Of a stretch of 56,236 nt of DNA, positions 3,001-52,229 are shown piece by piece. Position 1 is the first letter of the stretch, and every line of letters starts with the position of its first letter. Source of the stretch: Chloroflexota bacterium (lineage in GTDB: Bacteria > Chloroflexota > Chloroflexia > QHBQ01 > JADMIH01); contig DAHVFG010000004.1 in assembly GCA_027317125.1 (NCBI GenBank), forward strand, positions 1 to 56,236. Reading direction: 5' to 3'. The notes below the pieces were generated by a model that saw only the letters and a program-made list of their open reading frames with translations, did not search any database and was not told where the DNA came from. Made by a program: the position numbers and the translations under genes.

Positions 3001-3003
3001 CAT
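1..3003 (-). CDS. copA: Cu(I)-translocating P1B-type ATPase, 3'-truncated by the window edge
   Basis: Not in the ORF track because it runs off the window. Manual translation from ATG at 3003 gives [50 protein letters not shown] and MAMSS, with no stop before base 1. Confidence 0.96.
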
Positions 3004-3098
3004 CTAAATTAATCTCCCCAAGTGTGGAAAATCCACTTTTGCATACTATATTGGTAAAACTTTTTGCATACCATTTGTTAAATCTATAGTGTACATGT

Positions 3099-3368
3099 TC
3101 AACGCTGCGAAATCTGGAATAGCTCAGCGAGTTCGCCTATTACCTCGTTCTCTCGACCTTCCTTTATGCCATCGAGCACACAGGCCTGTAGATGGCCCTC
3201 CAGGAGAACCCCTTCGAACTTGTCAATAGCGCGCTGCACAGCATAAGTCTGCTTGAGAACGTCAACGCAGTACTGATCTTCTTCAACCATCCGGCGAATA
3301 GCCTTCAGGTGTCCTTCAATATAGGCCAGCCGCCTGAGCGCTTCCTGCTTGCTTGTCTCTGTTCTCAT
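3099..3368 (-). CDS. csoR: CsoR/RcnR family copper-sensing repressor
   Basis: RLAYIEGHL...YCVDVLKQ...HLQAC carries the Cys, His and Cys Cu(I) ligands; directly upstream of copA; RBS AGGAG. Confidence 0.93.
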   Translation of the reverse strand: MRTETSKQEALRRLAYIEGHLKAIRRMVEEDQYCVDVLKQTYAVQRAIDKFEGVLLEGHLQACVLDGIKEGRENEVIGELAELFQISQR

Positions 3369-3384
3369 TGTTTACTCCTACCCT

Positions 3385-3439
3385 ACCCCCCTGGTGGGGG
3401 TTCTGTGATAATGATACCAGAGTAAAGGGCGGTTGTCAA
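3385..3439 (-). promoter_or_regulatory. sigma70 promoter of csoR-copA with CsoR-type operator
   Basis: Minus-strand TTGACA (3439-3434), 17 bp, TATCAT (3416-3411). C/G-tract palindrome ACCCCC-CTGGT-GGGGGT at 3385-3401, typical of CsoR operators. Confidence 0.85.
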
Positions 3440-3643
3440 TAGGTCCAGAGGTGTATAAGCGACCGCATTTGAAGTGGGGACGGCGTTTCCTCATCACTAC
3501 CCTGACGTGAATAGTGGGAGTTTACATCTTGCTCTCAATTCGGCTGCGTTTGCACCCAGGGTTGCCAGACGGAGGCTGGCCCAGGAATTGCACAAATGGC
3601 TGAATAGCCGCTGTGAAATTGGTGTTCAGTATGGAGGGGTCCG

Positions 3644-5109: not shown

Positions 5110-5532
5110 ATGTCAAACAACACGCCTGACAACTGGAATCAGAGTATCATCGAGGAGTTCCGCGCCAATAGCGGCAAGGTGGGAGGGCCGTTTGCAGGCA
5201 ATCGCCTGCTCCTGCTGACCACCACAGGTGCCCGGACAGGCCGCCGGCTCACCAGCCCCCTCATGTATAACACAGATGGAGACCGCCTGGTCGTCTTTGG
5301 CTCTAAAGGCGGTGCACCCACCCACCCCGCCTGGTACTACAATCTCCTCGCCAACCCCCAGGTAACGGTCGAGCTAGGAAACGAGACTTTCAAGGCAAAT
5401 GCTAAGCCCCTCACAGGCGAGGAGAGAGACCGCCTCTATCGCAAGCAAGCCGAGGAGGTCCCACAGTTCGCCACCTACCAGGAGAATACCAGCCGCAAAA
5501 TCCCGGTCATCGCCATCGAGCGCATAGACTGA
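5110..5532 (+). CDS. F420-dependent nitroreductase family (FDOR-A/Ddn-like) oxidoreductase
   Basis: IIEEFRAN.GKVGGPF, LLLTTTGARTG, SKGGAPTHPAWYYNL, YQENTSRKIPV; start moved to ATG 5110 after AAAGGA. Confidence 0.9.
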   Translation: MSNNTPDNWNQSIIEEFRANSGKVGGPFAGNRLLLLTTTGARTGRRLTSPLMYNTDGDRLVVFGSKGGAPTHPAWYYNLLANPQVTVELGNETFKANAKPLTGEERDRLYRKQAEEVPQFATYQENTSRKIPVIAIERID

Positions 5533-5538
5533 GGTGTA

Positions 5539-5690
5539 GTAAACGCTCAGACTTGGCTTGCAAGTGCTTGCCCCTGCCCTCACCCCATGCCCCTCTCCCT
5601 GCATGGGAGAGGGGCATGGGGTGAGGGTACGTAAGGGTAGGTGAGGGCTGCCCCTTGACGATTGCTCCACCCCTTACTCTGAACAGTTAT
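5539..5690. mobile_element. Short copy of MITE/REP-like repeat family
   Basis: Degenerate left end GTAAACGCTCAGAC, CCCTCACCCCATGCCCCTCTCCC...GGGAGAGGGGCATGGGGTGAGGG hairpin, and right end CCCTTACTCTGAACAGTTA shared with 23200 and 42180. Confidence 0.75.
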
Positions 5691-5833
5691 CTCCACCATT
5701 CCTATTGTATCCAGCCTCGCATGGGTATATAATAGCGCTACGGTATCGCACTTGTATACTCCAGCAATGCCTTTTGCCATTGCCAACTTTTTCATCAGTC
5801 CAGGTTTCTTCAGGTTGCAAAGGAGAGAACGAC

Positions 5834-33884: not shown

Positions 33885-34454
33885 TCATGGTGTGGGTGTG
33901 GCTTTCGGTTCTGCTACCAGTACATCGAGCTGGTCACGAGTGATCGGCCCGATCCAGTGCATAGTTATCATGCCTTGAGCGTCCACCACGAACGTTTCGG
34001 GTATGCCTGTCACCCCATAATCAACGGCAGCCGCCCCGGTGTCCTGCCCGTTGGGGTAGGCTATGCCGAACTCGTTCAGAAAAGCCTCTGCCGCCGTTTT
34101 GTCGTCCCAGACATTCACTCCTACCAGTATAATGTTGCGCGCTTTGTAATCGCGAGCGGCTTGCGCCAGCACAGGAGCCTCAGTACGACAAGGGTTGCAC
34201 CAGGAAGCCCAGAAATTGACGACAACCATCTTGCCACGTTGCTCCGACAGAGTCCAGGGCGTATCCTTCCCATCAAAGAGGCGCAAACGCAGCTCAGGCG
34301 CGGGCCGTTGCTGGGCGCGAGCTATGACGCCCTGAGAGTTGACACCCGGGCTGGCAGACCCGGTGTCGGGGCGTATCATGCCCCAACCAAGCAAAGCCAA
34401 CAGCCCCACTGCCGCCGCAAGGCCCAGGACGCTAATCAAGCGCTGTGCTGTCAT
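33885..34454 (-). CDS. ccmG: CcmG/TlpA thiol-disulfide oxidoreductase
   Basis: N-terminal TM, VVVNFWASWCNPCR, YGVTGIPETF; first gene of the ccm run. Confidence 0.85.
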   Translation of the reverse strand: MTAQRLISVLGLAAAVGLLALLGWGMIRPDTGSASPGVNSQGVIARAQQRPAPELRLRLFDGKDTPWTLSEQRGKMVVVNFWASWCNPCRTEAPVLAQAARDYKARNIILVGVNVWDDKTAAEAFLNEFGIAYPNGQDTGAAAVDYGVTGIPETFVVDAQGMITMHWIGPITRDQLDVLVAEPKATPTP

Positions 34455-34726
34455 TCAACCCCCTGAGTACACGCTTTCGGCTTTATGCTACTGCTAAAGA
34501 CCCTCGCCCGAAAGCGCTTTGTTTACAGTTACCGCACATGGCAAGCTGTAGTAGCTCTTGCTGCAATTTTTATTAAGCTAATACCGAAAATCTATCACAA
34601 ACACCAGCCTGATGTCCAGCCATGATAGCTACATTGAGCGTGAAGAGTAGAGAAGTGCAGCAATTTTTTAACCTATATTAATCCTGGGGCAATGCAATAC
34701 GACACTATCGGCTGCGCTTTCATCCC

Positions 34727-35905
34727 CTACCGGGCAGCGCCCAACCGTTGTTGGAGAGTAGAGGCATCCATTTGCCCGATCTGCACGGCCCGGATCATAC
34801 CATCTTTATCAATAAAGTATGATGTGGGTATAGGTCCGACCTGGTAAAGATCGGTCACATAATTCTGGAGATCCATTGCCACAGGAAAGGTCACTCCAAA
34901 CTCTTCCACAAAAGCACTGACACTTGGCAGCTCGCTTTGAGTTGCCACAGCGATTATCTCAAATCTACTGGCCTCTCCGTTGCTCTCTTGAGACTTGTAA
35001 GCCTCCTCCAGGATAGGCACCACAGCCCGGCAAGCTGGGCACCAGGGCGCCCAGAGGTAGAGCACAACTCTCGTGCCGCGCAGCGCGCTAAGTTGGATAG
35101 CTTTGCCGTCAACCCCCTTGAGGCTAAAGTCGGGCGCCCGGGTACCAACCCGTGGGGCTATGCCATTGTTTGGGTCGCGCAGCCTTTCTATGTTAGCTTT
35201 TTGCACCAGGCCCAGCTGCCACTGGTTTACTCTGGCAGCTCGAACCTTAGGGTCGTTCGAGCCGCCAGTAATATAGCGTTCTTCAAATCGCTCGACAAGC
35301 GTAACGTCGGCAAGACTTGTCTTCAGATCATCATACGTCAAGCCGTTACTGCGCAATCTCTCATCAAGCTTACCGGGCGCAACGTTGCCTTGCTTTATAA
35401 TCAGAGCGACTTCATCACCTATATCCTGTGTGGTTACGCTAAAGCCTGCCTGACGCGCAGCCTGCGCTTGTATCTCAACAAGTATGACCTGTTCGAGCAC
35501 TGAGGGAGCAGATAGGGCTTCTTCTTTGCCGGTGGAGGCGGCAGAAAGGGCTTTATTTACCTTGATCTGGCGGTCGACCTGCTCAAGAGTGATAGGTTGG
35601 CCGTTTACACGGGCTACTACGCTGCCCTGGAGGAGCGGCTGCCACCAAAAGGCCAAACTCCAGATGGTGAGAATGATGGCCGAAATTAAGCCTGTGAGCG
35701 CGAGGAGCCTTCGCCTCTGCCGGATCCGCTTACGGCGCTGTACAATCACAAAGCTCCGAAGGGGTACCTTACGTTTACTGTCAACCTTTACAGGGTGCGA
35801 GACCGGGACACCATCACTCCGGTTGCCTGTCTCTATCTCAACCTCAAAAAGAGATGCCGGCTCCTGCCTCTTTTCAGGGCGTTTTACTGGAGATGACTTG
35901 CTCAT
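34727..35905 (-). CDS. SurA N-terminal-like chaperone domain fused to a TlpA/ResA redoxin
   Basis: TM, VVARVNGQPIT...LEQVI...Q.A...G.SVT.QDI (SurA-N), then APDFSL, WAPWCPAC, IPTSYFID. Confidence 0.82.
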   Translation of the reverse strand: MSKSSPVKRPEKRQEPASLFEVEIETGNRSDGVPVSHPVKVDSKRKVPLRSFVIVQRRKRIRQRRRLLALTGLISAIILTIWSLAFWWQPLLQGSVVARVNGQPITLEQVDRQIKVNKALSAASTGKEEALSAPSVLEQVILVEIQAQAARQAGFSVTTQDIGDEVALIIKQGNVAPGKLDERLRSNGLTYDDLKTSLADVTLVERFEERYITGGSNDPKVRAARVNQWQLGLVQKANIERLRDPNNGIAPRVGTRAPDFSLKGVDGKAIQLSALRGTRVVLYLWAPWCPACRAVVPILEEAYKSQESNGEASRFEIIAVATQSELPSVSAFVEEFGVTFPVAMDLQNYVTDLYQVGPIPTSYFIDKDGMIRAVQIGQMDASTLQQRLGAAR

Positions 35906-35984
35906 AGCTCTGCCTACTCCAAAAGCAATGCTCCACCGCTCCACCCCCACCCGCACACCCTACAGCTTGGGGCGATCTGCCCAA

Positions 35985-36023
35985 CTACTAAACGATTATA
36001 GTTGAATGCCTAGCCTCTGTCAA
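35985..36023 (-). promoter_or_regulatory. sigma70 promoter of surA-tlpA with shared operator copy 1
   Basis: Minus-strand TTGACA (36023-36018), 17 bp, TATAAT (36000-35995). Motif CTACTAAACGATTATAGTTG at 35985-36004. Confidence 0.85.
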
Positions 36024-36231
36024 CGATGGACCCCGGTGATTTACCTGTATATCGATGAGACCATCAGGAAAGAGCCGCCGGCCACGGTAAGAGTGTTGTA
36101 GGCATTGTTGCTGAGAATCCAGTATAATAGTGATAACAGACCCAAACACGACCTTTTCTTGGCGGCTTTGACAGCTCTGATCATTTGCATAGATATTCCA
36201 TGTAAGAGTAGCCACCAGGGAAATAAATATC

Positions 36232-36270
36232 TTGACAACTCTGCCATAATCTACTAATATAGCTTCGTAG
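36232..36270 (+). promoter_or_regulatory. sigma70 promoter of tlpA with shared operator copy 2
   Basis: TTGACA (36232-36237), 17 bp, TAATAT (36255-36260). Near-palindrome CTACTAATATAGCTTCGTAG at 36251-36270. Confidence 0.8.
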
Positions 36271-36327
36271 AATAACTTTGTTGCAGGATTGGTCACCCTG
36301 CGGTCTATGAAAAGAGGGAGATAGGCA

Positions 36328-37167
36328 ATGGAAGGAAACGTGCGTCGCGATGAGGTAAGCTTGGGTCGCCGCTCCACGAAAGGCGGGCCATCTTCCGCAA
36401 GTAGGGCTGCGGGATCTGTGCCCATTGCGCCTTCCAGACGCAACCGTACCTACACCGTGAATGAGGCTTCTCAGTTGAGAGGTAGAGCAGCATCCGAGAC
36501 TTCCGTCCAGTATGAAGATGACCTGGATTACGAAGATGACCTGGATTACGAGGGTAGCTGGGAAGAAAGCGAGAGCGTAGAGCGAGACCCGCTTCGGACG
36601 CGGCTTGTCATTATAGCGGGCGCACTGGCAGGTATCCTTATAGTGTTAGTGGCGCTGCTCTTATTGCAGACGCAGCGTAGAGGGCAACTGGCTGCTGCCG
36701 GTAACGCCGGTGGCGCTTCGAATAGTGGCTCTGCTTTACCGGCGGCCCCAATAGTGGGGCGATACCCACCCGACTTCACGCTGACCACTCTGGATGGGAA
36801 GTCTGTAACGCTGAGCAGCCTGCGTGGGAAGCCCGTCTGGGTAAACTTTTGGGCCACCTGGTGCCCGCCCTGTCGCGCCGAAATGCCTGAGATGAAGCTG
36901 CGCTATGCCAAGTTCAAGGACCAGGGCCTGGTAATTCTGGGTGTTGATAACGCGGAAAATCCCGACACAGTGAAACAGTTTACTAGCAGTAACGGGTATG
37001 ACTGGACCTTTCTGCTCGACAGCGACACCGCTGTGGGCCAGCAGTATTATGTGACAGGCATACCGACCCACATATTTGTGGGTAAAGATGGCATTATCAA
37101 AGCCATCCAGGTGGGTGGTATACCGGGTACAATGATGGACCGCTACCTGGGCCTTATTATGAATTAG
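36328..37167 (+). CDS. TlpA/ResA family redoxin with long cytoplasmic N-terminal tail
   Basis: TM after about 90 aa, PDFTL.TLDG, VNFWATWCPPCRAEMP, GIPTH. Confidence 0.9.
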   Translation: MEGNVRRDEVSLGRRSTKGGPSSASRAAGSVPIAPSRRNRTYTVNEASQLRGRAASETSVQYEDDLDYEDDLDYEGSWEESESVERDPLRTRLVIIAGALAGILIVLVALLLLQTQRRGQLAAAGNAGGASNSGSALPAAPIVGRYPPDFTLTTLDGKSVTLSSLRGKPVWVNFWATWCPPCRAEMPEMKLRYAKFKDQGLVILGVDNAENPDTVKQFTSSNGYDWTFLLDSDTAVGQQYYVTGIPTHIFVGKDGIIKAIQVGGIPGTMMDRYLGLIMN

Positions 37168-37327
37168 CAGCCCGTGCCGTCACGGATGAGACCGGCTTCG
37201 CAAGTAGCCGTAAGAGACTCACCCCGAAGGCACAGAAGCGGTGAGTTGACATAAAAGGGAGCAGAGAGAAAGAGGAACAATCCTTGCGCACCTCTATCTC
37301 TGCGCAGGGCGTTCGTACATCGCTATA

Positions 37328-37365
37328 CCCCTACTCTGAACAGTTACCGGTTTCATGCCCCGTTG
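37328..37365. repeat. Isolated right end of the MITE family
   Basis: CCCCTACTCTGAACAGTTAC followed by TTTCATGCCC.GTTG, as at 42160-42198. Confidence 0.65.
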
Positions 37366-37391
37366 ACAGCAGCGCCAGTACAGTATAAGCT
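37363..37391 (+). promoter_or_regulatory. Putative sigma70 promoter of the DUF3105 gene
   Basis: TTGACA, 17 bp, TAAGCT; RBS TAAGGAG follows. Confidence 0.55.
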
Positions 37392-37431
37392 TGAGGAAGC
37401 AGCACTTCTAACTAAGGAGAAATAGAGCAAG

Positions 37432-38172
37432 ATGAGTAAAGCCTCCGGATCAAAGCCGCCTGTGCGCCGAAGTGGTACCGGTGCGCGGCCCAACACTACA
37501 CAGCGCCGAGCAAGCAGCTACGTACCCGCCAGACGTGATCCTTTCCCGTTCATAATAGGCGGGTTAATAGGAGTGTTGGTAGTTGGCATCGTGTTAGTGC
37601 TGGTGTTGGTCACTTCTACTATAAATACACCTGCGCCAAGCACAGTGCCGCAGGTTGGAGCAACGCAAGGGGCAAATACCTCCGGTAACGTCGGCAACCC
37701 CATCGTCCTGCCAACTCGCCCTCTGCCCGCCGCAGGCCCCGGCACGCCTGTGCTGGGCACAGCCGTCCTGGACGAAGGCAAGACCCATGTGCCCGATGGT
37801 ACGGCCATTACTTATAAATCTTATCCCCCCTCGTCAGGCTCACATTACTCGAAGCCTGCCAGCTACGGCTTTTCAGCCACGGAAATACCGGAAGGCAATC
37901 TCGTTCACGCCCTTGAGCACGGGGCTATCATTCTCTATTACCAACCTGGGCTGCCAGCCAGCACCATCCAGCAAATACAGGCAGCTTATACAACCTTGCC
38001 TCCCGCTAAATACGGCACTGTAAAGATGGTGATCACACCCTATGCCAAGCTCCAGACGCCTGTGGCAGTTGTCGGCTGGGCACGTGTGTTGACGCTACCC
38101 AGCTTTGATTACAACTCTATAAGCACCTTTTATCAGGAGTGGGTAGACAAAGGGCCTGAGGACGTGCCGTAG
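37432..38172 (+). CDS. DUF3105 domain membrane-anchored protein (copy 1)
   Basis: TM, THV...Y.SYPPSSGSHY, LVHALEHGAIILYY, GPEDVP C-terminus. Confidence 0.85.
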   Translation: MSKASGSKPPVRRSGTGARPNTTQRRASSYVPARRDPFPFIIGGLIGVLVVGIVLVLVLVTSTINTPAPSTVPQVGATQGANTSGNVGNPIVLPTRPLPAAGPGTPVLGTAVLDEGKTHVPDGTAITYKSYPPSSGSHYSKPASYGFSATEIPEGNLVHALEHGAIILYYQPGLPASTIQQIQAAYTTLPPAKYGTVKMVITPYAKLQTPVAVVGWARVLTLPSFDYNSISTFYQEWVDKGPEDVP

Positions 38173-41816: not shown

Positions 41817-42234
41817 GTAACTGTTCAGAGTAAGGGTAGAACAAAGTCCAAGTCGTGCCTGTGCGGGTACACCTGCCCTCACCCCCAACCCCTCTCCCAC
41901 AAGGGGAGAGGGGCTTTGTGCATGGTGAGTGCACAAGGGACACCCCTGTAACCCTCTCAGGAGCTTGGCCCTTGCACCCTATTCTTCTGAAAATAGGCTC
42001 TCAGCAGCCTACTTTCATGGTAAGCGTTCAGACTAAGGGTGGATGGGCCAGCCTAGCCCCCTCTCCCTTCATGGGAGAGGGGCATGGGGTGAGGGTAGGT
42101 GAGGGTAGGTGAGGGTAGGTGAGGGTACGCCTCCATAGCTACTCCTTGAAGATTGCTCCACCCTTACTCTGAACAGTTACACTTTCATGCCCAGTTGGTG
42201 ACCCGAAGGGTCATGAGTTATTCTGAACATTTAC
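41817..42234. mobile_element. Composite MITE-like element
   Basis: Perfect 21-bp inverted ends GTAACTGTTCAGAGTAAGGGT (41817-41837) / ACCCTTACTCTGAACAGTTAC (42160-42180). Also an internal second left end at about 42020, tandem GGTGAGGGTA units, and an appended module 42181-42234. Confidence 0.85.
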
Positions 42235-42844: not shown

Positions 42845-44115
42845 TTGAAAGAACAAGAGCATTCTCACGCCGGTGAGCACGAAGGCCACCGCCACCCCAC
42901 GCTGACGGTCTTGCAACGCCTGCCGACGCGCATGAGCATGAGCACGGCGACAGTAAAGCGGCTCATAGTCACAACCCTGCCGTTTCTCCTGCTAACAGCC
43001 AGACCATGCGCATGCTGACGCTGCGGACCACGGCCACGAGCACGATACTGACGGGGGCGATGGCCACGGTGATGGCCACGGTCACGGCCATGATCACCCC
43101 GATCACCCTGAAGGTCCGCTGGGGTGGCTGCGCGAACTGCTACCCTTCGCGCACGGGCACAGCCACGGGGGCGTGAACGTCGATACGGCAATGGAGACCA
43201 GCGACCGGGGTCTATAGGCGCTCAAAGTCTCCCTGGCTGGGCTTGGCGCTACAGCCCTGTTTCAACTGGTGATAGTGCTTATCAGTGGCAGTGTAGCGCT
43301 ACTGGCCGATACGATACACAACTTCTCGGACGCCCTTACCGCTATTCCGTTGGGTATAGCTTTTGTTCTAGGCAGGCGTGCCGCCAGCCGCCGCTACACC
43401 TACGGATAAGGCCGGGCGGAAGATGTAGCGGGTGTGGTAATCGTCTTCGTGATCTTCGCGAGCTCCTTAGTAGCAGACTGGGAGAGTTACCAGAAGTTCT
43501 TGAACCCGCAGCCCTTGAGCAACCAACGTCTGGTGGGTCGTTGTGGCCGCGATAGTCGGTTTCGCGGGCAATGAAGGGGTGGCGGTCTTTCGCATCCGTG
43601 TAGGTAAGGAGATAGGCTCGGCCGCTCTCATCGCAGACGGGCAGCACGCCAGGGTGGACGGAATAACATCGCTGGCCGTGCTATTCGGCGCAATAGGCAG
43701 CCTGCTGGGCTTCCCCCTTGCCGATCCTATTGTTGGTATGCTGATCACAATTGCTATACTATTTATAGTTACAGACACAGCCCTCACAATGTATCGCAGG
43801 CTCATGGACGCCATAGACCCCGAAATATTGGAGAGCATTGAGCAGACCGCGGCAAGCGTACCAGGGGCAGAAGATGCCCATGACGTGCGAGTCCGATGGT
43901 TGGGCCACGGGCTGCAAACCGAGCTGCACATCATAGTGGACGAGGACCTTCCGATCAGGGAGAGCCACAGGATAGTTGAGGAAGTGCGCCATGCCCTGTT
44001 CCACGCACAGCCCAAGCTGGCGGTGGTCAATGTACATGTGGACCCGTGCGGGCACAGTGGCGAAGATGCCCACAGCCGGACCGAGCACCACGCGAAACCT
44101 GTGCGCACTTCTTGA
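42845..44115 (+). pseudogene. Cation diffusion facilitator (CDF) pseudogene with His-rich N-terminus
   Basis: SGSVALLADTIHNFSD, SAALIADGQHARVD and VHVDP motifs, broken by TAG (43215-43217), TAA (43407-43409), a CAAC duplication (43520-43527) and upstream frameshifts. Confidence 0.9.
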
Positions 44116-45256: not shown

Positions 45257-46063
45257 TTATATTCCGAAGTTGGGCGCTATGCGCTGGAAGAGGGAAAGGG
45301 AGTTGGTGAAAACGAGGAAGCCCATTACCACCAGCAACACGCCACTGACAAGCGAGATCACATTAACGTCCCTTATGAGCGGCCACTCTCCTAGCTTCAG
45401 CGAGTAAGTACGCCTGGTCAGCCTCTTGAGGCCCACAGAAATACGGCCCATGGCCATAGCCGTTAGCAAGAAAGGTATACCAAGACCTAGTGAGTAGGCG
45501 AGCGCCGGCAGGAAAGCCTGTGATTGCTGGCCGTTCAATGCGAGCGTGAAAATAATTCCTAACGTTGGCCCAATACAGGGTGTCCACCCTATACCGAAGC
45601 CCATACCTATCAACAGAGAGCGTAAGTACCCCAGATTGCTGGCAGGGCGGATCTCCAGCCGGCGTGTATAGTTCAGGAAGGGTATATTTATAGCGCCCAC
45701 CGTGTGGAGGCCGAAGACCACCAGCACCACACCCATAATCTGTTGTAGCACCCTGATGTTGCCTTTCAACAAATAGCTGAAGGTGCCTGCCAGCCCTCCT
45801 ATCACCACCACGAAGACCACCGTTAGGCCCAACACAAAAAGCAGTGCGTGCCCCAGTACGACCCACCGTGCTGAACTGCTGGACATGGTGGCAGTAGCAG
45901 CCCCACCGCGTCCTGTAACTACGGCATCGCCTCTAGCGGCTGCGAGAGCCGGGCCGCTCATATAGCCGATGTATGCAGGCACAAGGGGCAGCACACACGG
46001 CGAGAGGAACGAAACAAGGCCCGCGAACAGAGCTATCAAGAGAGAAGGAGCTTCGATTCCCAT
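45257..46063 (-). CDS. ccdA: CcdA (DsbD-beta) transmembrane electron transporter
   Basis: SFLSPCVLPLVP and GWTPCIGP catalytic Cys motifs; YSLGLGIPF. Confidence 0.95.
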   Translation of the reverse strand: MGIEAPSLLIALFAGLVSFLSPCVLPLVPAYIGYMSGPALAAARGDAVVTGRGGAATATMSSSSARWVVLGHALLFVLGLTVVFVVVIGGLAGTFSYLLKGNIRVLQQIMGVVLVVFGLHTVGAINIPFLNYTRRLEIRPASNLGYLRSLLIGMGFGIGWTPCIGPTLGIIFTLALNGQQSQAFLPALAYSLGLGIPFLLTAMAMGRISVGLKRLTRRTYSLKLGEWPLIRDVNVISLVSGVLLVVMGFLVFTNSLSLFQRIAPNFGI

Positions 46064-46232
46064 GGGTTGCTTTACCTTTCTTCCAGGATATAGAAACAAA
46101 TGTCGCAATGCGAGTCGCTAAATATGAGCTTTGCAAATTCGGAGGCGGCGACCACGAGCGTGGGGCGATTAGTGGCGTCCAAGAGATTATCAGGGCACTG
46201 TAAATAATTTATACCATGTTGGAGCGTCAGGA

Positions 46233-47162
46233 TCAACAGCCTCCAAGAAGAGAGTGAGCCTGATTCCAGAAGGCGCTGGACACTGCGGCCCAGATAGTGA
46301 TAGCCACAACGCTAGTAATGCTCGCTACTACAAAAGAACTGATAAAGAGGGAAGTGACATGCGGACCCGCAGGTGCGACGCCATCCAGCAGGTAGTCTAG
46401 CCGCCGATTGATCGCGTCAGTCGCGCCCACTCCTGTAGCGCCCACACCGGTTAGCTTGTTAGCCTTATGAGCTTGCTGCATGAGTAGCTTATACAAGGCC
46501 GCCAGCAAAGGCCGGTCGGTCCCCTGAGTGCGTAGCGCGTACTCATCAGCTTCTATCTCCTTGGCCAGCAGATATTGCTTTTGCCAGGCCTTGATAACAG
46601 GCAGGAAAAAAAAGGTGGTAGAGAGGGCATGTGATACCGCGCTTCTCAGAGGATCACGGTGCAAGAGGTGCAGATACTCGTGTAGGAGAAGGGCTTCTAC
46701 CTCTCGCACCTGTAACCCTGCTACCGCGCCCCTGGACAGACATATGCGCGGTCGTACCCACCCATAGCAAAAGGCTAAAGGTCTCTCGGTATCTATAAAG
46801 TCGAGATGGCTATATATCTCTACTATAGCCAACCTGCCCCAGGCCTGAGCATCTGCACTAACGCGGAGGCGCAACAAGCTTCGCATCATTCGCCTGGTAC
46901 GATACCACTGTCTCAGCAAAGAACAAAGAGCTGCAAAGAGGCTGACGCTCAGTACAGCCGCTATAGCGTAGCTCAGGGTGTGTGAGAGCCAGTCGGAGGG
47001 TGTAGGTACCATGAGGCAAACGAGCAGGTCGTCTCGCCCAACTGGGGCCTTCTTACTTAGCAGGCTGCCTGCTATCAGCGGACCGGCGATGGCTACAATG
47101 AATAGCAGCGTGATAGAGAGGGCCGCTACCAGCACCCGGCGGAAGCTCCCTTGCGCACTCAC
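46233..47162 (-). CDS. M56 family (BlaR1/MecR1 N-terminal) zinc metallopeptidase lacking a penicillin-binding sensor domain
   Basis: PLAFCYGWVRPRICLS.G, LLHEYLH...RDPLR, EIEADE, RRLDYL; GTGA coupling to the repressor gene. Confidence 0.92.
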   Translation of the reverse strand: MSAQGSFRRVLVAALSITLLFIVAIAGPLIAGSLLSKKAPVGRDDLLVCLMVPTPSDWLSHTLSYAIAAVLSVSLFAALCSLLRQWYRTRRMMRSLLRLRVSADAQAWGRLAIVEIYSHLDFIDTERPLAFCYGWVRPRICLSRGAVAGLQVREVEALLLHEYLHLLHRDPLRSAVSHALSTTFFFLPVIKAWQKQYLLAKEIEADEYALRTQGTDRPLLAALYKLLMQQAHKANKLTGVGATGVGATDAINRRLDYLLDGVAPAGPHVTSLFISSFVVASITSVVAITIWAAVSSAFWNQAHSLLGGC

Positions 47163-47632
47163 CCTCTCTCCTCCCTCTCCGCCGTCTCAACTCCTTGCCC
47201 TTTTGCCTCCTCCAGGAGCTTGTGTAATCGCTCAAGGTGCTTGGGTTCGACTTGCTCTACAGCCTCCAGAAACTGCGCCAAAACCAGATCCCCAAAGTCC
47301 GCGACGAGCGTATCGACCATATGCTGGCTGCAACGTACGAGGAACTCCTCTTTCGTTAGCGCCACATGATACATATGTGTCTTTTTGTCTATAGCAGTAC
47401 GCCTGAGCAGCCCTTTTTCTGCAAGATGCACCATAACAGTCATCACAGTGGTGTACGCTGCGGGCCTGCTCTTCCTTATTTCGGTGGTAATATCTCGTAC
47501 AGTAGCCTCACCTGCTTCTCCGCGCAGCCACATCAACTCCATAACTTCAACTTCCAGCTCTCCAAGCAGCTTATGCAGGCTGTTGCTCTGTGGGCGGCTC
47601 ATTCTATCGTACGGCGTCCAGCGACGTGGCAT
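47159..47632 (-). CDS. BlaI/MecI/CopY family transcriptional repressor
   Basis: LGELEVEVMELMW, ATVRDI, AYTTVMTVM..L.EKGLL.R; strong RBS GAGGAGG before ATG 47632. Confidence 0.93.
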   Translation of the reverse strand: MPRRWTPYDRMSRPQSNSLHKLLGELEVEVMELMWLRGEAGEATVRDITTEIRKSRPAAYTTVMTVMVHLAEKGLLRRTAIDKKTHMYHVALTKEEFLVRCSQHMVDTLVADFGDLVLAQFLEAVEQVEPKHLERLHKLLEEAKGQGVETAEREERG

Positions 47633-47691
47633 AAGATCCTCCTCTTCCCGTTCCGGTTCCATTTCGGGATTGCTCTGCCTCTCGATCTTTG

Positions 47692-48429
47692 TTAACTGCC
47701 GCTCTGTAAGTGATGATCTTTACCCTTGTATGCGTCAATAAAGCGCTTTACGCGCGCCTCATCAAATGTGCTCAGGCGATCTATGCGCGTCCAGGCGGTC
47801 AGTACTATAGGGTTCGTGAGGCCCGTGTAAGGCGCCATTAGCACCTGCGTGTCATAGCCGCCGACCACTTTAGCCAGATTGTCCACAGTAGCCTTGTCGA
47901 GGTTGGGCTGATAGTAAATTACTACACCCCCATCCTCCAGATTATGTACCGCTTGCTCTTTTATCACAGGCTGGGCGCTCACGCCCCAGGCCGCTAAATT
48001 GATAAGGTGAGGACCCGATGTAGGAGGGTCGGTATTATAGCTGTGTGGTGCGTCTACGCTGGCGATATGGGTGCTAGGCTCCTGTGTTATTGATTGTCCG
48101 GGCTTACTCGCCTCGTTGATGATAAGAGCGGTAATGCCCCCTCCCACGAGTAGGACCACAGCTGCCGCTATTCCCAGGTTGCGCAGCGACGACCTCCGCT
48201 TGCGCCGCTCCGCAGCGGCACGCGCTTCACTCTGCCTCTGCATCCTGGCTGCGCGCTTCGCCTCCTGGTCTACAGCCACTTGCGGGTTAGTGCCCGGAGC
48301 GGCTGCGGTCAGAGTGGCTGCGGACGGAGATGTGGAGGCGCTCTGTTTGCGCCCCTGCCCTTGTCGCTGTTTTTGGCCTTGTCCTTGTCTCTTCTGATTG
48401 GGGGTTTGTGTGCCGTGCCTGCTGCTCAA
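47692..48429 (-). CDS. DUF3105 domain membrane-anchored protein (copy 2)
   Basis: TM, THI, YNTDPPTSGPH, VHNLEDGGVVIYY, LTAW, GKDHH; TTG start after GAGGAG. Confidence 0.87.
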   Translation of the reverse strand: MSSRHGTQTPNQKRQGQGQKQRQGQGRKQSASTSPSAATLTAAAPGTNPQVAVDQEAKRAARMQRQSEARAAAERRKRRSSLRNLGIAAAVVLLVGGGITALIINEASKPGQSITQEPSTHIASVDAPHSYNTDPPTSGPHLINLAAWGVSAQPVIKEQAVHNLEDGGVVIYYQPNLDKATVDNLAKVVGGYDTQVLMAPYTGLTNPIVLTAWTRIDRLSTFDEARVKRFIDAYKGKDHHLQSGS

Positions 48430-48571
48430 AGTGATGCTCCTCGTCTCGTAAAGTTCCGGCAAGAAGATAGTTTTATACTTTTTACCACACTTATATTCAC
48501 CGGTAGCCCGCTCCGATGCACCTTGTAGATACGTATAACCGTAGAGTGAAACGGCTACCGGCTGGCGGTAT

Positions 48572-48610
48572 CTACTAACAGATTATAGTGTAATTGCTCG
48601 TGGTCGTCAA
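48572..48610 (-). promoter_or_regulatory. sigma70 promoter of DUF3105-blaI-M56-ccdA with shared operator copy 3
   Basis: Minus-strand TTGACG (48610-48605), 17 bp, TATAAT (48587-48582). Motif CTACTAACAGATTATAGTGT at 48572-48591. Confidence 0.85.
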
Positions 48611-48851
48611 CGGTTTAGGAGCTTCGTAAGCAGGGCGATTGCATCTAAATTGAGGCACGAGAGAACCGCGCGCCTTTGCGGCTCGTATTACTGTTGGCTC
48701 ACACCCGCGCACGAAAATTGCTATCCTCATATGTATGCCGCGGTAAAGTTAGTCGCACTTGTGGCGCGCTGCATACATAATTTATATTTACGTGGGCAAC
48801 ATAGTAGAATCGGTGGTGTAGTCTCTGATAAAACGAAGAGGAGTGAGCAAA

Positions 48852-49685
48852 ATGAACATGAACACAGCGAGTGGGGCAAACTCTGATCTGATAAACAACG
48901 TATTGATAGTGTGGTTTGTCCTCGTAGCGTTCTCGGCTCTTTACGTTGCCTGGGACGCTTTTACAAACAATCCTGAGATGACGGTGATGAAGTGGGGCTG
49001 GCTCCTTGTGACGCTTTACACAGGGCCTGTCGGTTTAGCGATCTACATTCTTTCCTGTAAAGAGCCGAGGCCGGGGACGCATGAGAAGTTCATCCAGCCG
49101 CTCTGGAAGCAAGCCGTTGGCTCCACCATCCACTGTCTCGCGGGCGATGCCACAGGCATCATTGTGGCGGCGGTAGTCACCATGACCCTTGGTTTTCCGA
49201 TGTGGCTGGATTCGATCTCCGAGTACGTTTTCGGCTTCGCGTTCGGCCTGCTAATCTTCCAGTCTCTCTTTATGAAAGACATCATGGGGCTTTCTTATCT
49301 GCAAGCTGTCAAGCGCTCCTTGCTGCCGGAGTGGGTGTCAATGAACAGCGTGATGGCAGGGATGATCCCAACAATGGTGATACTTATGAGCCTCGATGGC
49401 AGCGCGATGGAGGCCACTTCAATCCGCTTCTGGGGCGTGATGTCGCTCGCCACCCTCGCAGGCTTGGTCGTCGCCTACCCGGTGAATGCGTGGCTGGTAG
49501 CCGTAGGGCTGAAGCATGGCATGGGCACTGTGCGGGCACTGGGTAAGGGCGGGCACAGCCTGGCATCTGAAGCGGAAGTAAGCCGGAAGGGATCAGGGGC
49601 AGCGCCCGCCCTGAGTGCAGCTACCGCGCAGAGCGCGGGAGCCCCGGCCTCTGAGAGCAGTATGGGCAGCATGAAAGGAATGTAA
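48852..49685 (+). CDS. DUF4396 domain membrane protein
   Basis: W.LVTLYTGP.GL, STIHCLAGDATG, AYPVNAWLV..GLKHGM; Met-rich tail. Confidence 0.85.
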   Translation: MNMNTASGANSDLINNVLIVWFVLVAFSALYVAWDAFTNNPEMTVMKWGWLLVTLYTGPVGLAIYILSCKEPRPGTHEKFIQPLWKQAVGSTIHCLAGDATGIIVAAVVTMTLGFPMWLDSISEYVFGFAFGLLIFQSLFMKDIMGLSYLQAVKRSLLPEWVSMNSVMAGMIPTMVILMSLDGSAMEATSIRFWGVMSLATLAGLVVAYPVNAWLVAVGLKHGMGTVRALGKGGHSLASEAEVSRKGSGAAPALSAATAQSAGAPASESSMGSMKGM

Positions 49686-49689
49686 AGCG

Positions 49690-51054
49690 ATGGAAAATCA
49701 AGATAAAATGGATATGAGTGGTATGAGCGCCGCGGGAAGCGGCAACGACAGTAAACAGGGGATGGGAGAAGGCAGTGGCAAGGCGATGGAAAAGCCCAAA
49801 ATTACTACCCCTCAGCTGGTGGCGGTCTCGCTACTGACGCTGCTGGCCCTGGCCGGCGGGGTGTTACTGGCCGCGCTCTTTGGCAATTTTGGAATGAGCG
49901 CCGCGGATATGAAAAGCGGAGGAGCCGCGCCCGGCCAGGCCCAGGCCATGCCCACCCAGATGAGTGGTAACAACGGCGCGATGGGAGGAATGGGGGGCTC
50001 CAATGGGCCTATGCCCATTTCTTCGATGCCTCAGGCGCAGATGAGCGGCCTCACCCAGATGAATGGGCTTGTCATGCCACCGGGTATGATTATGACGCAG
50101 GGCATGAGTCCGGAGGCCATGAAGGACATGTCGGCGGTGGACATGAGCAAGGTCTCATATACCGCCCCTGCCGATGCGAGAGGCGACCAGCCTCTGGCCT
50201 CTTCCGTGGTCTCGGATGGTGTCAAAGTCTTCAACCTCGATGTTTCTCTCATAAAGTGGAATATTCTGCCTAATGTGCAGGTGGCAGCTTACGCTTTTAA
50301 CCGCCAGGTTCCTGGGCCGCGAATCACCGTCACTGAAGGCGACCGCGTGCGCATCATCGTCAAGAACAACCTGCCGGAGGCGACCACAGTACACTGGCAT
50401 GGGCTGATTGTACCCAACGGAATGGACGGGCCTGCTGACATAACACAGAAGCCAATCGAGCCGGGGGCGACTTTCACTTATGAGTTCACAACCCAGCAGA
50501 GCGGCACTTACTTTTACCATTCACATAAGAACCCCGACCGCCAGCAAGCTCTTGGGATGTACGGCGCGCTGATCATTGAGCCGAAGGCCAAGCCTGCTAC
50601 CCCCGCGTACAACAAGGACGTCACGATCCAATTGCAGGAGTGGACTGTCAAGGAAGGTTACACCTTCCCAGCCATGCCGATGGAAGGCCTGATGCCAAAC
50701 TTCTTCACCATCAACGGCAAAGCCTACCCCGCGACGGAAACTATCAACGCTAAGGTGGGTGACAATATACTCGTGCGCTTCATCGGCTCAAACAGCGCTT
50801 TCATACACCCTATGCACATACATGGCGGGCCATTCAAGATAGTTGCTACCGATGGCAACGCGGTGCCCGAAGCGGCTCAAATACAAAAGGATACTGTGGA
50901 GGTAGGCCCTGGGGAGCGATACGACGTGATCTGGCCGGCCCGTCTGCCCGGTAAGTGGCTGATACACTGCCACATCAACCATCACACCACCAACGACAAT
51001 GTGGAGGAGCAGGGCGGCGGCGGTCTCACAATGATAATCAACGTGACGCCATAG
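49690..51054 (+). CDS. Two-domain multicopper oxidase with Met-rich N-terminal region
   Basis: HWHG, YHSH, HPMHIHG and HCHINHH copper motifs; TM anchor. Confidence 0.93.
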   Translation: MENQDKMDMSGMSAAGSGNDSKQGMGEGSGKAMEKPKITTPQLVAVSLLTLLALAGGVLLAALFGNFGMSAADMKSGGAAPGQAQAMPTQMSGNNGAMGGMGGSNGPMPISSMPQAQMSGLTQMNGLVMPPGMIMTQGMSPEAMKDMSAVDMSKVSYTAPADARGDQPLASSVVSDGVKVFNLDVSLIKWNILPNVQVAAYAFNRQVPGPRITVTEGDRVRIIVKNNLPEATTVHWHGLIVPNGMDGPADITQKPIEPGATFTYEFTTQQSGTYFYHSHKNPDRQQALGMYGALIIEPKAKPATPAYNKDVTIQLQEWTVKEGYTFPAMPMEGLMPNFFTINGKAYPATETINAKVGDNILVRFIGSNSAFIHPMHIHGGPFKIVATDGNAVPEAAQIQKDTVEVGPGERYDVIWPARLPGKWLIHCHINHHTTNDNVEEQGGGGLTMIINVTP

Positions 51055-51195
51055 CGCCGATGGGCACATAACTTGCTGTGAACAGTTAGACAGCGAGCGT
51101 ACGCAGATGCACTCCCCTCGTTGTCAGACAATTGTGCAGATGCTCTTCTGCAACGTTAATTCAGCAAGTAAAGCTATCATTCAGGAGGAACTACA

Positions 51196-51555
51196 ATGCC
51201 CCACACAATGGACCCACAGATGAACCAGCAAATGCAACAATGTATCCAGGAGTGTCTGAACTGCCACAGTATCTGCTTACAGACGGTGTCGTACTGTTTG
51301 CAGCAAGGAGGGCAGCACGCTGAAGTTCACCATATAACGTCGCTGCTCGATTGCGCGGAGAGCTGCCAGACGAGCGCCAACTTCATGCTGCGTGGCTCTG
51401 AGCTGCATGCGCAAGCCTGCGGCTTTTGCGCTGCGGCATGCGAGATGTGCGCTCAAAGCTGTGAGCAGATGGGCAGCGATGCTCAGATGCAAGCCTGCGC
51501 CCAGGAGTGCCGCCGCTGCGCCGAGTCATGCCGGCGTATGGCGTCTATGGCGTAG
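51196..51555 (+). CDS. Four-helix-bundle copper storage protein (Csp3/DUF326-like)
   Basis: 16 Cys in CxxxC/CxxC spacing, no signal peptide; RBS AGGAGG. Confidence 0.9.
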   Translation: MPHTMDPQMNQQMQQCIQECLNCHSICLQTVSYCLQQGGQHAEVHHITSLLDCAESCQTSANFMLRGSELHAQACGFCAAACEMCAQSCEQMGSDAQMQACAQECRRCAESCRRMASMA

Positions 51556-51725: not shown

Positions 51726-52229
51726 TTACTTCCCCTCCGGGATAATCTCGAAACCGGCGCTTTTCCATGCGTCCATGCCACCCGCAAGGTTGTAGACGTT
51801 TGTGTAACCCAGCCTCGTGAGGGTTTCGCTGGCGATACCGCTCATGCGCCCACTCCGGCACGTTATGACCAACTTAGCGCCTTTGTCTGCCGGAAACTTG
51901 CTTATTTGCTGCTCGACCAGGTTGTAGGCTATGCGCGCATCAGTTTTGGGCAACCTGCCTTCAGGCGGTGTATGGACATCAACCAGGAAGAAATCCTTGT
52001 TGTCGAGCATTGGCTTCAACTCGGCGGGCGTAAGATTGGTGTACGAGCCATAAGCCGTCTTAACTACCGTTCCAATCTGCCCGGATACAGTGGCCTTACC
52101 AGACGAGCTATCAGGTGTTGATGTCGAGTTACCCCCTTGCCCTTGCCCGCAACCGGTAAGGAGGAATGTCAAGGCGAGAATGCAGAAAAGTATAGAGCTC
52201 CGAGAAGCTGGACGGGGCATGTGGTTCAA
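51726..52229 (-). CDS. Rhodanese-domain lipoprotein
   Basis: Lipobox LTGC; active loop CRSGRMS; NLAGGMDAW. Confidence 0.88.
   Translation of the reverse strand: MNHMPRPASRSSILFCILALTFLLTGCGQGQGGNSTSTPDSSSGKATVSGQIGTVVKTAYGSYTNLTPAELKPMLDNKDFFLVDVHTPPEGRLPKTDARIAYNLVEQQISKFPADKGAKLVITCRSGRMSGIASETLTRLGYTNVYNLAGGMDAWKSAGFEIIPEGK

Follow-up and report, generated by a model that had tools for sequence, protein, structure and literature searches.

A repressor of the BlaI/CopY family and an adjoining membrane zinc protease, encoded on the minus strand of a 56,236-nucleotide (nt) stretch of DNA from a Chloroflexota bacterium (contig DAHVFG010000004.1 of assembly GCA_027317125.1; the window in what follows), very probably work together as a protease-repressor switch. 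This switch probably controls a regulon of copper- and thiol-stress genes. In the best-supported reading, which we give an even chance, the pair is a relative in design of the cyanobacterial PetR/PetP system, and copper is sensed by a Cys2His2 patch of the protease at the outer face of the membrane. That this patch is the sensor at all stands at about one chance in two, and metal binding at the patch is somewhat favoured over formation of a disulfide.

According to the proposed mechanism, the repressor most likely binds operators of the form (T)CTAC-N12-GTAGA, which overlap the -10 box at each of three promoters, i.e., those of the DUF3105-repressor-protease(-ccdA), the DUF4396-multicopper oxidase and the TlpA-DUF3105 genes. 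The signal would most probably be copper, or another thiophilic metal, at the outer face of the membrane. Cys49 and His61, in the loop between the first two transmembrane helices (TM1 and TM2), and His303 and Cys309, in the C-terminal tail, would form one Cys2His2-type site that binds copper or is oxidised by it. With metal bound, tail and loop would be tied together, which would stand in for the acylated sensor domain that acts on the extracellular loop EL1 in BlaR1. The tied loop would then move TM2, which is predicted to run straight into the protease domain, and the activated cytoplasmic active site would cut the repressor near Gln130-Phe131.

Judged by analogy, no known system comes closer than PetR/PetP (Slr0240/Slr0241) of Synechocystis sp. 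PCC 6803, a BlaI/CopY-family regulator with an overlapping, sensor-less M48/M56 protease (bioRxiv 10.1101/2020.07.31.226407). According to the main text of this preprint, PetR is degraded only when PetP and copper are both present, in extracts of Synechocystis as well as of E. coli (Garcia-Canas et al., bioRxiv 10.1101/2020.07.31.226407). Its authors propose two methionines in the TM2-TM3 loop of PetP as copper ligands, and point out that the equivalent loop contacts the sensor domain in BlaR1 (bioRxiv 10.1101/2020.07.31.226407). Our comparison with PetP was made from this published description and not by sequence alignment. Both systems have a regulator without the copper cysteines of CopY, a protease without a penicillin-binding domain, a protease start codon that overlaps the stop codon of the regulator gene, and a link to copper; in both, the loop before the helix leading into the protease domain is the proposed sensing element. 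In PetP, however, four membrane helices are predicted, and two conserved methionines lie in a loop of 14 residues; the window protease has three helices, its loop is 27 residues long and carries Cys-x11-His, and its tail ends in His-x5-Cys-COOH. The systems also differ in the box of the regulator (GACN5GTC for PetR compared to the (T)CTAC-N12-GTAGA motif here), in the host (cyanobacterial compared to Chloroflexota) and in the regulon, which consists of petE, petJ and two small genes for PetRP and of putative copper detoxification and envelope thiol-redox genes here. This suggests that the window pair is a variant of the PetR/PetP-type switch that is new in its Cys/His loop-tail patch. An earlier note on this stretch had presented sensing through the outer cysteines as a mechanism unlike the acylation of BlaR1; this novelty was overstated, since a copper-activated, sensor-less M56 protease, PetP, has already been published. 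As for the ligands, the main text of the preprint, supplement aside, mentions neither cysteine nor histidine (bioRxiv 10.1101/2020.07.31.226407). The sections on PetP in a 2026 review name no copper-binding residues and leave the membrane localisation open (PMC13421787), and the text available of a commentary (PMC7896320) and of a 2025 review (PMC12292863) supplies no binding site either. Within the literature searched, as far as its text was available, no M56/BlaI copper pair of this kind is described outside cyanobacteria.

The protease gene (46233..47162, minus strand, as are the codon positions below) encodes a sensor-less M56/M48 membrane zinc protease of 309 amino acids, as follows from its open reading frame (ORF) and translation, Pfam matches, an AlphaFold2 (AF2) model and a structural match. 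The GTG start codon (47162-47160) overlaps the TGA stop codon of the repressor gene (47161-47159) by 4 nt, as GTGA, and a GGAGG-rich stretch lies just 5′ of it. The gene ends with codons for W-N-Q-A-H-S-L-L-G-G-C followed by TGA (46233-46235), which places Cys309 at 46236-46238. The ORF and its last codons agree with the earlier description of a 309-residue protease that ends in QAHSLLGGC with a terminal cysteine, and the translation also contains the other residues named there: Cys49 in the TM1-TM2 loop, the equivalent of EL1 by alignment and model (codon 47016..47018), His61 in the same loop, at the outer end of TM2 (46980..46982), and the zinc-binding and catalytic motif HEYLH (residues 161-165, 46668..46682), which aligns with the HEXXH motif of BlaR1. 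Glu202, in the segment AKEIEAD (46557..46559), aligns with the EVEAD segment of BlaR1 and is likely the third zinc ligand, considering the membership of the gluzincin family. The tail motif His303-x5-Cys309-COOH (HSLLGGC, 46236..46256) contributes His303 as the tail histidine. A pair of cysteines, Cys132...Cys141 (AFCYGWxRPRIC, 46740..46769), lies just before the catalytic helix, on the predicted cytoplasmic side.

Assignment to the family is supported by Pfam matches to Peptidase_M56 (PF05569; 44 bits against a cut-off of 31) and Peptidase_M48 (PF01435; 30.6 bits against 20.3). The gluzincin site, HEXXH with a downstream Glu, is present as HEYLH 161-165 and Glu202 in 27-28 of the 28 rows of the clade alignment described below. 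The NCBIfam models of full-length BlaR1 give only 16-17 bits compared to cut-offs of 400-1200 (blaR1_generic, 17 against 400). The statement that the protein has no sensor domain also stands, as it terminates 12 residues past its last membrane helix with no further domain there; the penicillin-binding (SXXK) sensor domain is absent from the aligned relatives as well, 26 of the 28 rows stopping at the same Cys309. A search of longer relatives (candidates of 542-2000 amino acids) for fused domains found none, which is weak evidence.

A Kyte-Doolittle scan of the protease gives three membrane segments (12-30, 59-77 and 272-290). In the AF2 model, built from 28 sequences and with a mean predicted local distance difference test score (pLDDT) of 78.5, helices span residues 3-36, 43-51, 55-98 and 269-305, and strands lie at 120-123 and 140-143. 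The top Foldseek matches of this model are cryo-EM chains of Staphylococcus aureus BlaR1 (E 1.7e-3, probability 1.0). The best match found by VIA-align is the BlaR1 cryo-EM structure 8EXQ_A (Z 11.0, root-mean-square deviation 4.2, 204 residues aligned), which stands clearly above unrelated entries, the next being the Ste24 family at Z 8-9. Residues 1-241 of the model are superposed on BlaR1 33-302, leaving the first helix of BlaR1 (1-32) without a counterpart, so that TM1 pairs with BlaR1 helix a2, the loop 34-60 with EL1, and TM2 with a3. When a profile of the clade is aligned with BlaR1, residues 125-214 fall on 166-253, and HEXXH and E-x-E-A-D are among the matched segments. In BlaR1, EL1 (residues 56-96), between helices a2 and a3, is described as extracellular (PMC9834060). 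Lys and Arg number 2 in the N-terminus of the window protease, 3 in the loop 34-60, 8 after TM2 and none in the tail, and the tail occupies the place where the extracellular sensor of BlaR1 starts. Because of this Lys/Arg bias, the alignment with EL1 and the position of the tail, the protease domain is predicted to be cytoplasmic, with the Cys49 loop and the Cys309 tail facing outwards. A homodimer prediction with two copies and the clade alignment scored 0.01 and speaks neither for nor against a dimer. A search of the ESM Atlas with the protease returned solely generic M48/M56 clusters.

The candidate ligands are strongly conserved among close relatives. A word-indexed search yielded 36 relatives, 27 of which are 43-88% identical over the full length, and the resulting clade alignment has 28 rows, the query included. 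Cys49 is kept in 27 rows, the miss being a fragment (P0029) that lacks its N-terminal region; 26 rows end in Cys309, and the two that do not are the same P0029 and P0028, whose ends are apparently cut or frameshifted. His61 is found in 25 rows (Tyr in two, a gap in one) and His303 likewise in 25. For comparison, H161, E162 and H165 of the catalytic motif are each kept in 27 rows and Glu202 in all 28. Trp58 is present in 27, and the loop consensus reads C-L-F-x-P-T-x-A-D-W-x-x-H; Met51 of the window protease is not conserved among the 28 rows. The earlier note had proposed conservation of both cysteines next to ccdA as a check: the cysteines, and both histidines with them, are indeed conserved, and the cysteines are kept whether or not ccdA adjoins. 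A C-terminus of the form H-x4-5-GGC is also found in the more divergent proteins of loci L009, L011 and L012 (36-44% identity), and the protease of L008 ends in C-x4-C-PLMP.

To place these residues in the wider family, 1.84 billion cluster representatives were scanned with HMMER, which gave 5665 hits at E <= 1e-3; the counts in this paragraph and the next draw on the best 150 of these 5665. Out of 179 HEXXH sequences, 143 could be parsed into TM1, loop, TM2, last TM and tail with a crude hydropathy rule and 36 incomplete ones were dropped; 153 relatives lie outside the close clade and are referred to as distant. A loop Cys is present in 116 of the 143 parsed relatives, compared to 60 +/- 5 in shuffles, and a tail Cys in 117 of them, compared to 52 +/- 5. 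Cys is the commonest last residue of the distant relatives (30/153), while its overall frequency is 1.8%. Within the eight residues before this terminal Cys, His occurs in 19 of the 30 sequences (binomial p 3e-8 for a background of 17.6%); of the remaining 11, 10 terminate in C-x2-C. Terminal dyads of the form H-x2-6-C-COOH or C-x2-C-COOH are thus recurrent among distant relatives. In the N-terminal membrane part, C-x10-12-H is found in 44 of 134 distant relatives, compared to 11.5 +/- 3 in shuffles. The loop motif C-x10-12-H is associated with an H-xn-C end (counts [[11,33],[3,87]], Fisher p 2.9e-4, kinship ignored). A tentative generalisation, which we rather doubt, is that in the sensor-less M56 family as a whole the penicillin-binding domain is functionally replaced by an outward metal/thiol clamp. 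Such a clamp would consist of a loop Cys(-x11-His) and a C-terminal H-xn-C-COOH or C-x2-C-COOH dyad; once copper, or oxidation driven by it, linked the two, the protease would be set off. If true, the clamp would amount to an extracytoplasmic sensing module that is general and so far undescribed, and it would also explain how PetP-type switches read copper.

A different location of the sensor is suggested by Cys132 and Cys141, a cytoplasmic pair that is invariant (28/28 rows each) and that the earlier note had overlooked. The outer patch might be structural, as a constitutive disulfide or a zinc site, with the signal being cytoplasmic Cu(I) sensed at Cys132/Cys141, next to the active site, or being read through another protein such as DUF3105. 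Sensing at the cytoplasmic pair is the main rival and a serious one, which we nevertheless consider unlikely. The two residues flank a segment just before the HEXXH helix, by the predicted strands 120-123 and 140-143, and in the profile alignment S. aureus BlaR1 has Trp and Ile in their places. Cys132 occurs in 107, Cys141 in 89 and both in 76 of the 153 distant relatives. Moreover, the PetP assays, as published in the preprint text, are silent on the membrane side on which copper acts, because whole-cell extracts were used. The variant with DUF3105 as signal reader draws on the fact that a DUF3105 gene heads the operon and is found near the pair in 5 of the 15 loci described below; against it speaks that DUF3105 is absent from most loci. 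Against an inner sensor speaks a second BlaI-M56 pair of the same genome (contig C42, locus L022, 3959-5412, minus strand). Its 324-residue protease keeps a loop Cys (TQTCFQ) and a Cys/His tail, ...GSMGCGVHGLLVG (GCGVHGLLVG), and is without Cys132/Cys141. The outer features are also at least as widespread in the wider family as the inner pair, and in the published account of BlaR1 the signal enters via EL1.

The partner of the protease is a 167-residue winged-helix repressor of the BlaI/CopY family (47159..47662, minus strand; Pfam Penicillinase_R, PF03965, E 9.5e-21). Its nearest solved relatives are MecI and 2G9W, the latter being the best sequence match in the PDB (E 4.9e-8). The protein is cysteine-poor: the C-terminal Cys motif of the CopY type is missing and its single Cys is not conserved. 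The NCBIfam model CopY_TcrY (TIGR02698) matches it with E 3.4e-10, though at only 40 bits compared to a cut-off of 122. MecI and BlaI are described as being cleaved between Asn101 and Phe102 (PMC9834060). This scissile bond aligns with Gln130-Phe131 of the window repressor, and Phe131 is shared by at least 90% of the 15 repressors aligned, which makes it a candidate cleavage site. Elsewhere in the genome, an orphan BlaI-family repressor of 137 amino acids is encoded on contig C122 (locus L023, 6056-6469, minus strand) with no adjacent M56 gene; it adjoins a peroxiredoxin-like ORF at 5284-5766.

The repressor and its putative targets have a promoter motif in common. This motif was spotted by eye in aligned promoter contexts and then checked by pattern counts. 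Its consensus is (T)CTAC-N12-GTAGA, with the two-fold form (T)CTACTA-N6-TAGTAGA, which is a perfect palindrome in L013 and mostly overlaps a TATAAT-like box. The window has three sites by motif match. Site 1, ACTATAATCTGTTAGTAGA (48571..48589, minus strand), overlaps the -10 box of the DUF3105-repressor-protease operon, whose best promoter-like site is TTGACG-17-TATAAT (48610-48582; 11 of 12 positions matched). Site 2 (48790..48808, plus strand) lies 5′ of the DUF4396-multicopper oxidase genes, and site 3, CTACGAAGCTATATTAGTAGA (36250..36270, minus strand; pattern hit 36250-36268), lies 5′ of the TlpA-DUF3105 genes and is preceded on the opposite strand by a TTGAC -35-like box. A 21-mer identical to site 3 is found elsewhere in the genome at the start of a contig (G000:C136:106-126, locus L028), where the target gene is cut off; a DUF305-like ORF (656-1219, minus strand) is nearby.

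Pattern counts bear the motif out. The half-site TAGTAGAW occurs 8 times in the window compared to 1.19 expected, with two copies in the 380-nt divergent promoter region and one 5′ of the TlpA-like gene. The five others, at 2556, 11412, 37614, 52476 and 55399, are inside ORFs and have no partner half-site. The window contains AC-N10-TAGTAGR 3 times (0.5 expected), once at each of the three promoters, and only 1 of 100 shuffles reaches 3. Across 15 related loci (L001-L015), this pattern occurs 23 times compared to 1.15 in shuffles (maximum 5), in 12 of the 15 loci. These sites typically lie 5′ of a rhodanese or DUF3105 gene heading the repressor-protease operon, and also 5′ of DUF326, TlpA-like and multicopper oxidase genes, a multicopper oxidase with the motif being present both in the window and in L008. 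The arrangement of the motif on the -10 box recurs in L001, L003, L004, L006, L007, L008 and L009. As the motif is present at the promoters of the pair itself, it is probably the operator of this repressor, which we infer from sequence. The simpler pattern CTAC-N12-GTAG shows no enrichment of its own in the window (2 compared to 0.63 expected; 13 of 100 shuffles reach 2), and no perfect palindrome across the promoter regions is common to more than one locus. The cop box TACAnnTGTA does not occur in the window, nor was any other TACA/TGTA-type cop or bla box found there, and a regular-expression search of 16 promoter regions gave no match to the PetR box GAC-N5-GTC.

The genes around the pair fit a role in copper and thiol stress. 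The minus-strand operon runs in the order DUF3105, BlaI-family repressor, protease, CcdA-like. Its first gene (47692..48462, minus strand) encodes a membrane-anchored DUF3105 protein (Pfam DUF3105, E 1.5e-29), and 124 nt 3′ of the protease gene lies a putative CcdA/DsbD-type thiol-reductant transporter gene (45257..46108, minus strand; alternative start ATG at 46063). The latter matches Pfam DsbD_TM with 23.5 bits, under the cut-off of 27.1; counterparts adjoining the protease gene in L001-L003 score 27.2-33.9 bits. In the 124-nt gap no terminator-like site was found. A divergent operon (48843..51555, plus strand) contains genes for DUF4396, a multicopper oxidase and a Cys-rich 119-residue protein, the first two identified by their Pfam domains (DUF4396, Cu-oxidase). 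For the Cys-rich ORF of the window Pfam gives no match, whereas its counterpart in L001 matches DUF326. A rhodanese with a lipoprotein-like signal (LLTGC; Pfam Rhodanese) is encoded at 51726..52229 (minus strand). Site 3 precedes a stretch (36328..38172, plus strand) with the gene for a TlpA-like membrane-anchored thioredoxin (36328-37167; WATWCPPC in its translation, Pfam AhpC-TSA/Redoxin), followed by a second DUF3105 gene (37432-38172). This TlpA-like gene is the last of three in a row in window 33885-37167, at 33885-34454 (minus), 34727-35956 (minus; fused to a SurA_N-like domain) and 36328-37167 (plus), and only the last has the operator-like motif.

Related loci point in the same direction. 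A scan of one genome per species yielded the 15 loci, all from metagenome-assembled genomes of Chloroflexota, and 139 neighbouring ORFs were scanned against Pfam. A BlaI-family gene is directly 5′ of the protease gene in 14 of the 15; the exception is L006, which has a transposase close by and where no ORF for a repressor was found. Copper-linked genes are present in seven loci (L001, L004, L005, L008, L013, L014 and L015), namely multicopper oxidase with YtkA, HMA P-type ATPases, a CsoR-type repressor, cupredoxin, Cox11, DUF326 and DUF305, of which we presume the last two to be copper-linked. Thiol-redox genes of the CcdA/DsbD, TlpA-like, Glrx-like, VKOR and rhodanese classes are found in ten (L001-L004, L006, L007, L009, L010, L013 and L015). 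Among these classes, CcdA/DsbD-type genes occur in three loci (L001-L003) and rhodanese genes in six. Altogether, 13 of the 15 loci have copper or thiol-redox genes, the other two being contigs under 2.8 kb, and the window itself carries both kinds.

These data also bear on whether the pair senses copper or thiol stress at all. The protease could turn over the repressor constitutively, or upon a cue that has nothing to do with copper or thiols, with the metal genes adjoining by coincidence in a metal island. The ArsR, CDF and VIT1 genes that cluster in the window region are what such an island would contain, and the paralogous pair on C42 is without metal context. However, the motif ties the pair to multicopper oxidase, TlpA, DUF3105, DUF326 and rhodanese genes in 12 of the 15 loci, and copper or thiol-redox genes are found around all but two of the pairs, which makes an absence of such sensing very improbable. 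The CDF (cation efflux) gene of this cluster (42996-44115, plus strand) looks degraded, with two in-frame stops that divide one frame into stop-to-stop pieces 42996-43217, 43218-43409 and 43410-43574; its C-terminal half (43519-44115; Cation_efflux profile positions 109-198 and ZT_dimer) is in another frame.

If the outer patch is the sensor, it may still work through redox chemistry instead of metal binding. In that case, envelope oxidation, by oxidants or catalysed by Cu(II), would form a Cys49-Cys309 disulfide, and this bond would hold the tail against the loop and turn the protease on; induced TlpA and CcdA would reduce the disulfide again and so shut the system down. We regard this as unlikely, at a level similar to that of the inner sensor. 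Exactly two cysteines are predicted to face outwards, which suits a disulfide, and some relatives end in C-x2-C, which is also potentially redox-active. The earlier note had linked the cysteines to the co-encoded CcdA and TlpA in a feedback loop. This link holds insofar as ccdA follows the protease gene and the TlpA-like gene at 36328-37167 has the operator-like motif of the protease operon, for which reason a feedback loop through CcdA/TlpA is plausible. In addition, half of the ten loci with thiol-redox genes near the pair have no copper gene. A plain disulfide, however, leaves the conservation of His61 and His303 in the clade unexplained, as well as the excess of His before the terminal Cys in distant relatives. 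The copper genes for multicopper oxidase have the same operator-like motif, and the published precedent PetRP, as described in the preprint, responds to copper. A metal site is favoured because His61 and His303 are co-conserved and because relatives end in H-xn-C or C-x2-C. The two readings can coexist, as the cysteines must be reduced in order to bind Cu(I).

Several observations weigh against copper sensing by the outer patch. The invariant pair Cys132/Cys141 offers an alternative sensing site, and the ligands proposed for PetP are methionines, not cysteines. The earlier note had placed both cysteines and both histidines outside; the predicted orientation agrees with this, whereas the loop and the tail are the least confident parts of the AF2 model (pLDDT 56-64). 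The enrichment of loop and tail residues in the wider family is solid, but co-evolution of loop and tail is not established, because the relatives are kin and tests corrected for relatedness, which use independent pairs on a tree of the catalytic domain, are not significant. For loop Cys and tail Cys there were 7 such pairs, 1.3 of them concordant and 1.0 discordant; for loop motif and tail motif there were 9, with 2.7 concordant and 0 discordant (median p 0.25). These corrected tests are underpowered. At L002, L003, L006, L007 and L010, the genes within 4.5 kb include thiol-redox ones and none linked to copper. The C42 pair adjoins a gene for a DnaJ-domain membrane protein and nuo genes, without a copper gene in 6.7 kb; since its protease has patch-like residues without a copper context, the Cys/His patch is maybe not copper-specific. 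Lastly, the host genome is a metagenome bin that is 63.5% complete.

Besides PetRP, other systems illustrate parts of the proposed switch. BlaR1/BlaI and MecR1/MecI of S. aureus have the same protease fold, the same HEXXH...E site and the same repressor family, with the BlaI/MecI-family repressor gene adjacent. EL1 couples the outside to the protease in BlaR1, and the Cys49 loop is its equivalent in the structural alignment. In contrast to BlaR1 and MecR1, the window protease has no transpeptidase-like sensor domain and would not rely on acylation. The solved relative 2G9W is presumably the BlaI of Mycobacterium tuberculosis (Rv1846c), whose neighbour BlaR (Rv1845c) we take to be without a sensor domain as well; we know of no copper link for this pair. 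CopY and TcrY of Firmicutes belong to the same winged-helix family and have a copper context. CopY binds Cu(I) itself via a C-terminal Cys motif. Unlike in CopY/TcrY, the C-terminal Cys-rich motif and the cop box are missing here, and the protease would be the likely sensor. In Bradyrhizobium, an extracytoplasmic Cys/His copper site of ScoI or CoxB is kept reduced by CcdA-fed TlpA before copper binding. The likeness to this system is only in mode, TlpA and CcdA being part of the putative regulon here; ScoI is not a relative, as it is a thioredoxin-fold chaperone and not a protease, and it has no role in signalling.

How a sensor-less BlaR1-type protease perceives its signal is an open point in the field. 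This clade provides four strongly conserved candidate ligands, an operator-like motif and a compact putative regulon, and the question of sensing is therefore directly testable. If the proposed copper switch is true, protease-gated copper sensing would reach beyond the plastocyanin switch of cyanobacteria and serve, in Chloroflexota, the detoxification of copper and the repair of envelope thiols; copper sensing would also be tied to the TlpA/CcdA reductant pathway.

A further observation concerns DUF3105, encoded by the first gene of the operon and again at 37432-38172. A model of its domain, built from 41 sequences, reaches a pLDDT of 95.8 and shows a thioredoxin-like fold: at the top of the Foldseek ranking stand thioredoxins throughout (E 8e-3, with a probability of up to 0.99 and a template modelling score of 0.45-0.50). 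The domain is without a Cys pair and has invariant His, Glu and Asp residues in Y-x-x-D-P-P-T-S-G-P-H, V-H-N-L-E and D-H-H; therefore, DUF3105 may be a metal-binding thioredoxin-fold protein, as far as the model can tell. The family is large (1494 hits) and is hardly mentioned in the literature searched, to the extent that its text was available.

Two minor observations concern the wider surroundings. At L003, genes for DUF2933 and a methyltransferase of the ICMT/PEMT family (2455-3506) are located about 2.5 kb 5′ of the pair. Lipidation or methylation of the terminal Cys was considered and dropped, as this ICMT-family gene, 2.5 kb away at a single locus, was its only support. Furthermore, a G+C-rich intergenic repeat is present on at least three contigs, at 41855-42112 in the window, at 127-483 in L028 and at about 5600-5800 in L022, and reads in one frame ...SPFMGEGHGVRVG...

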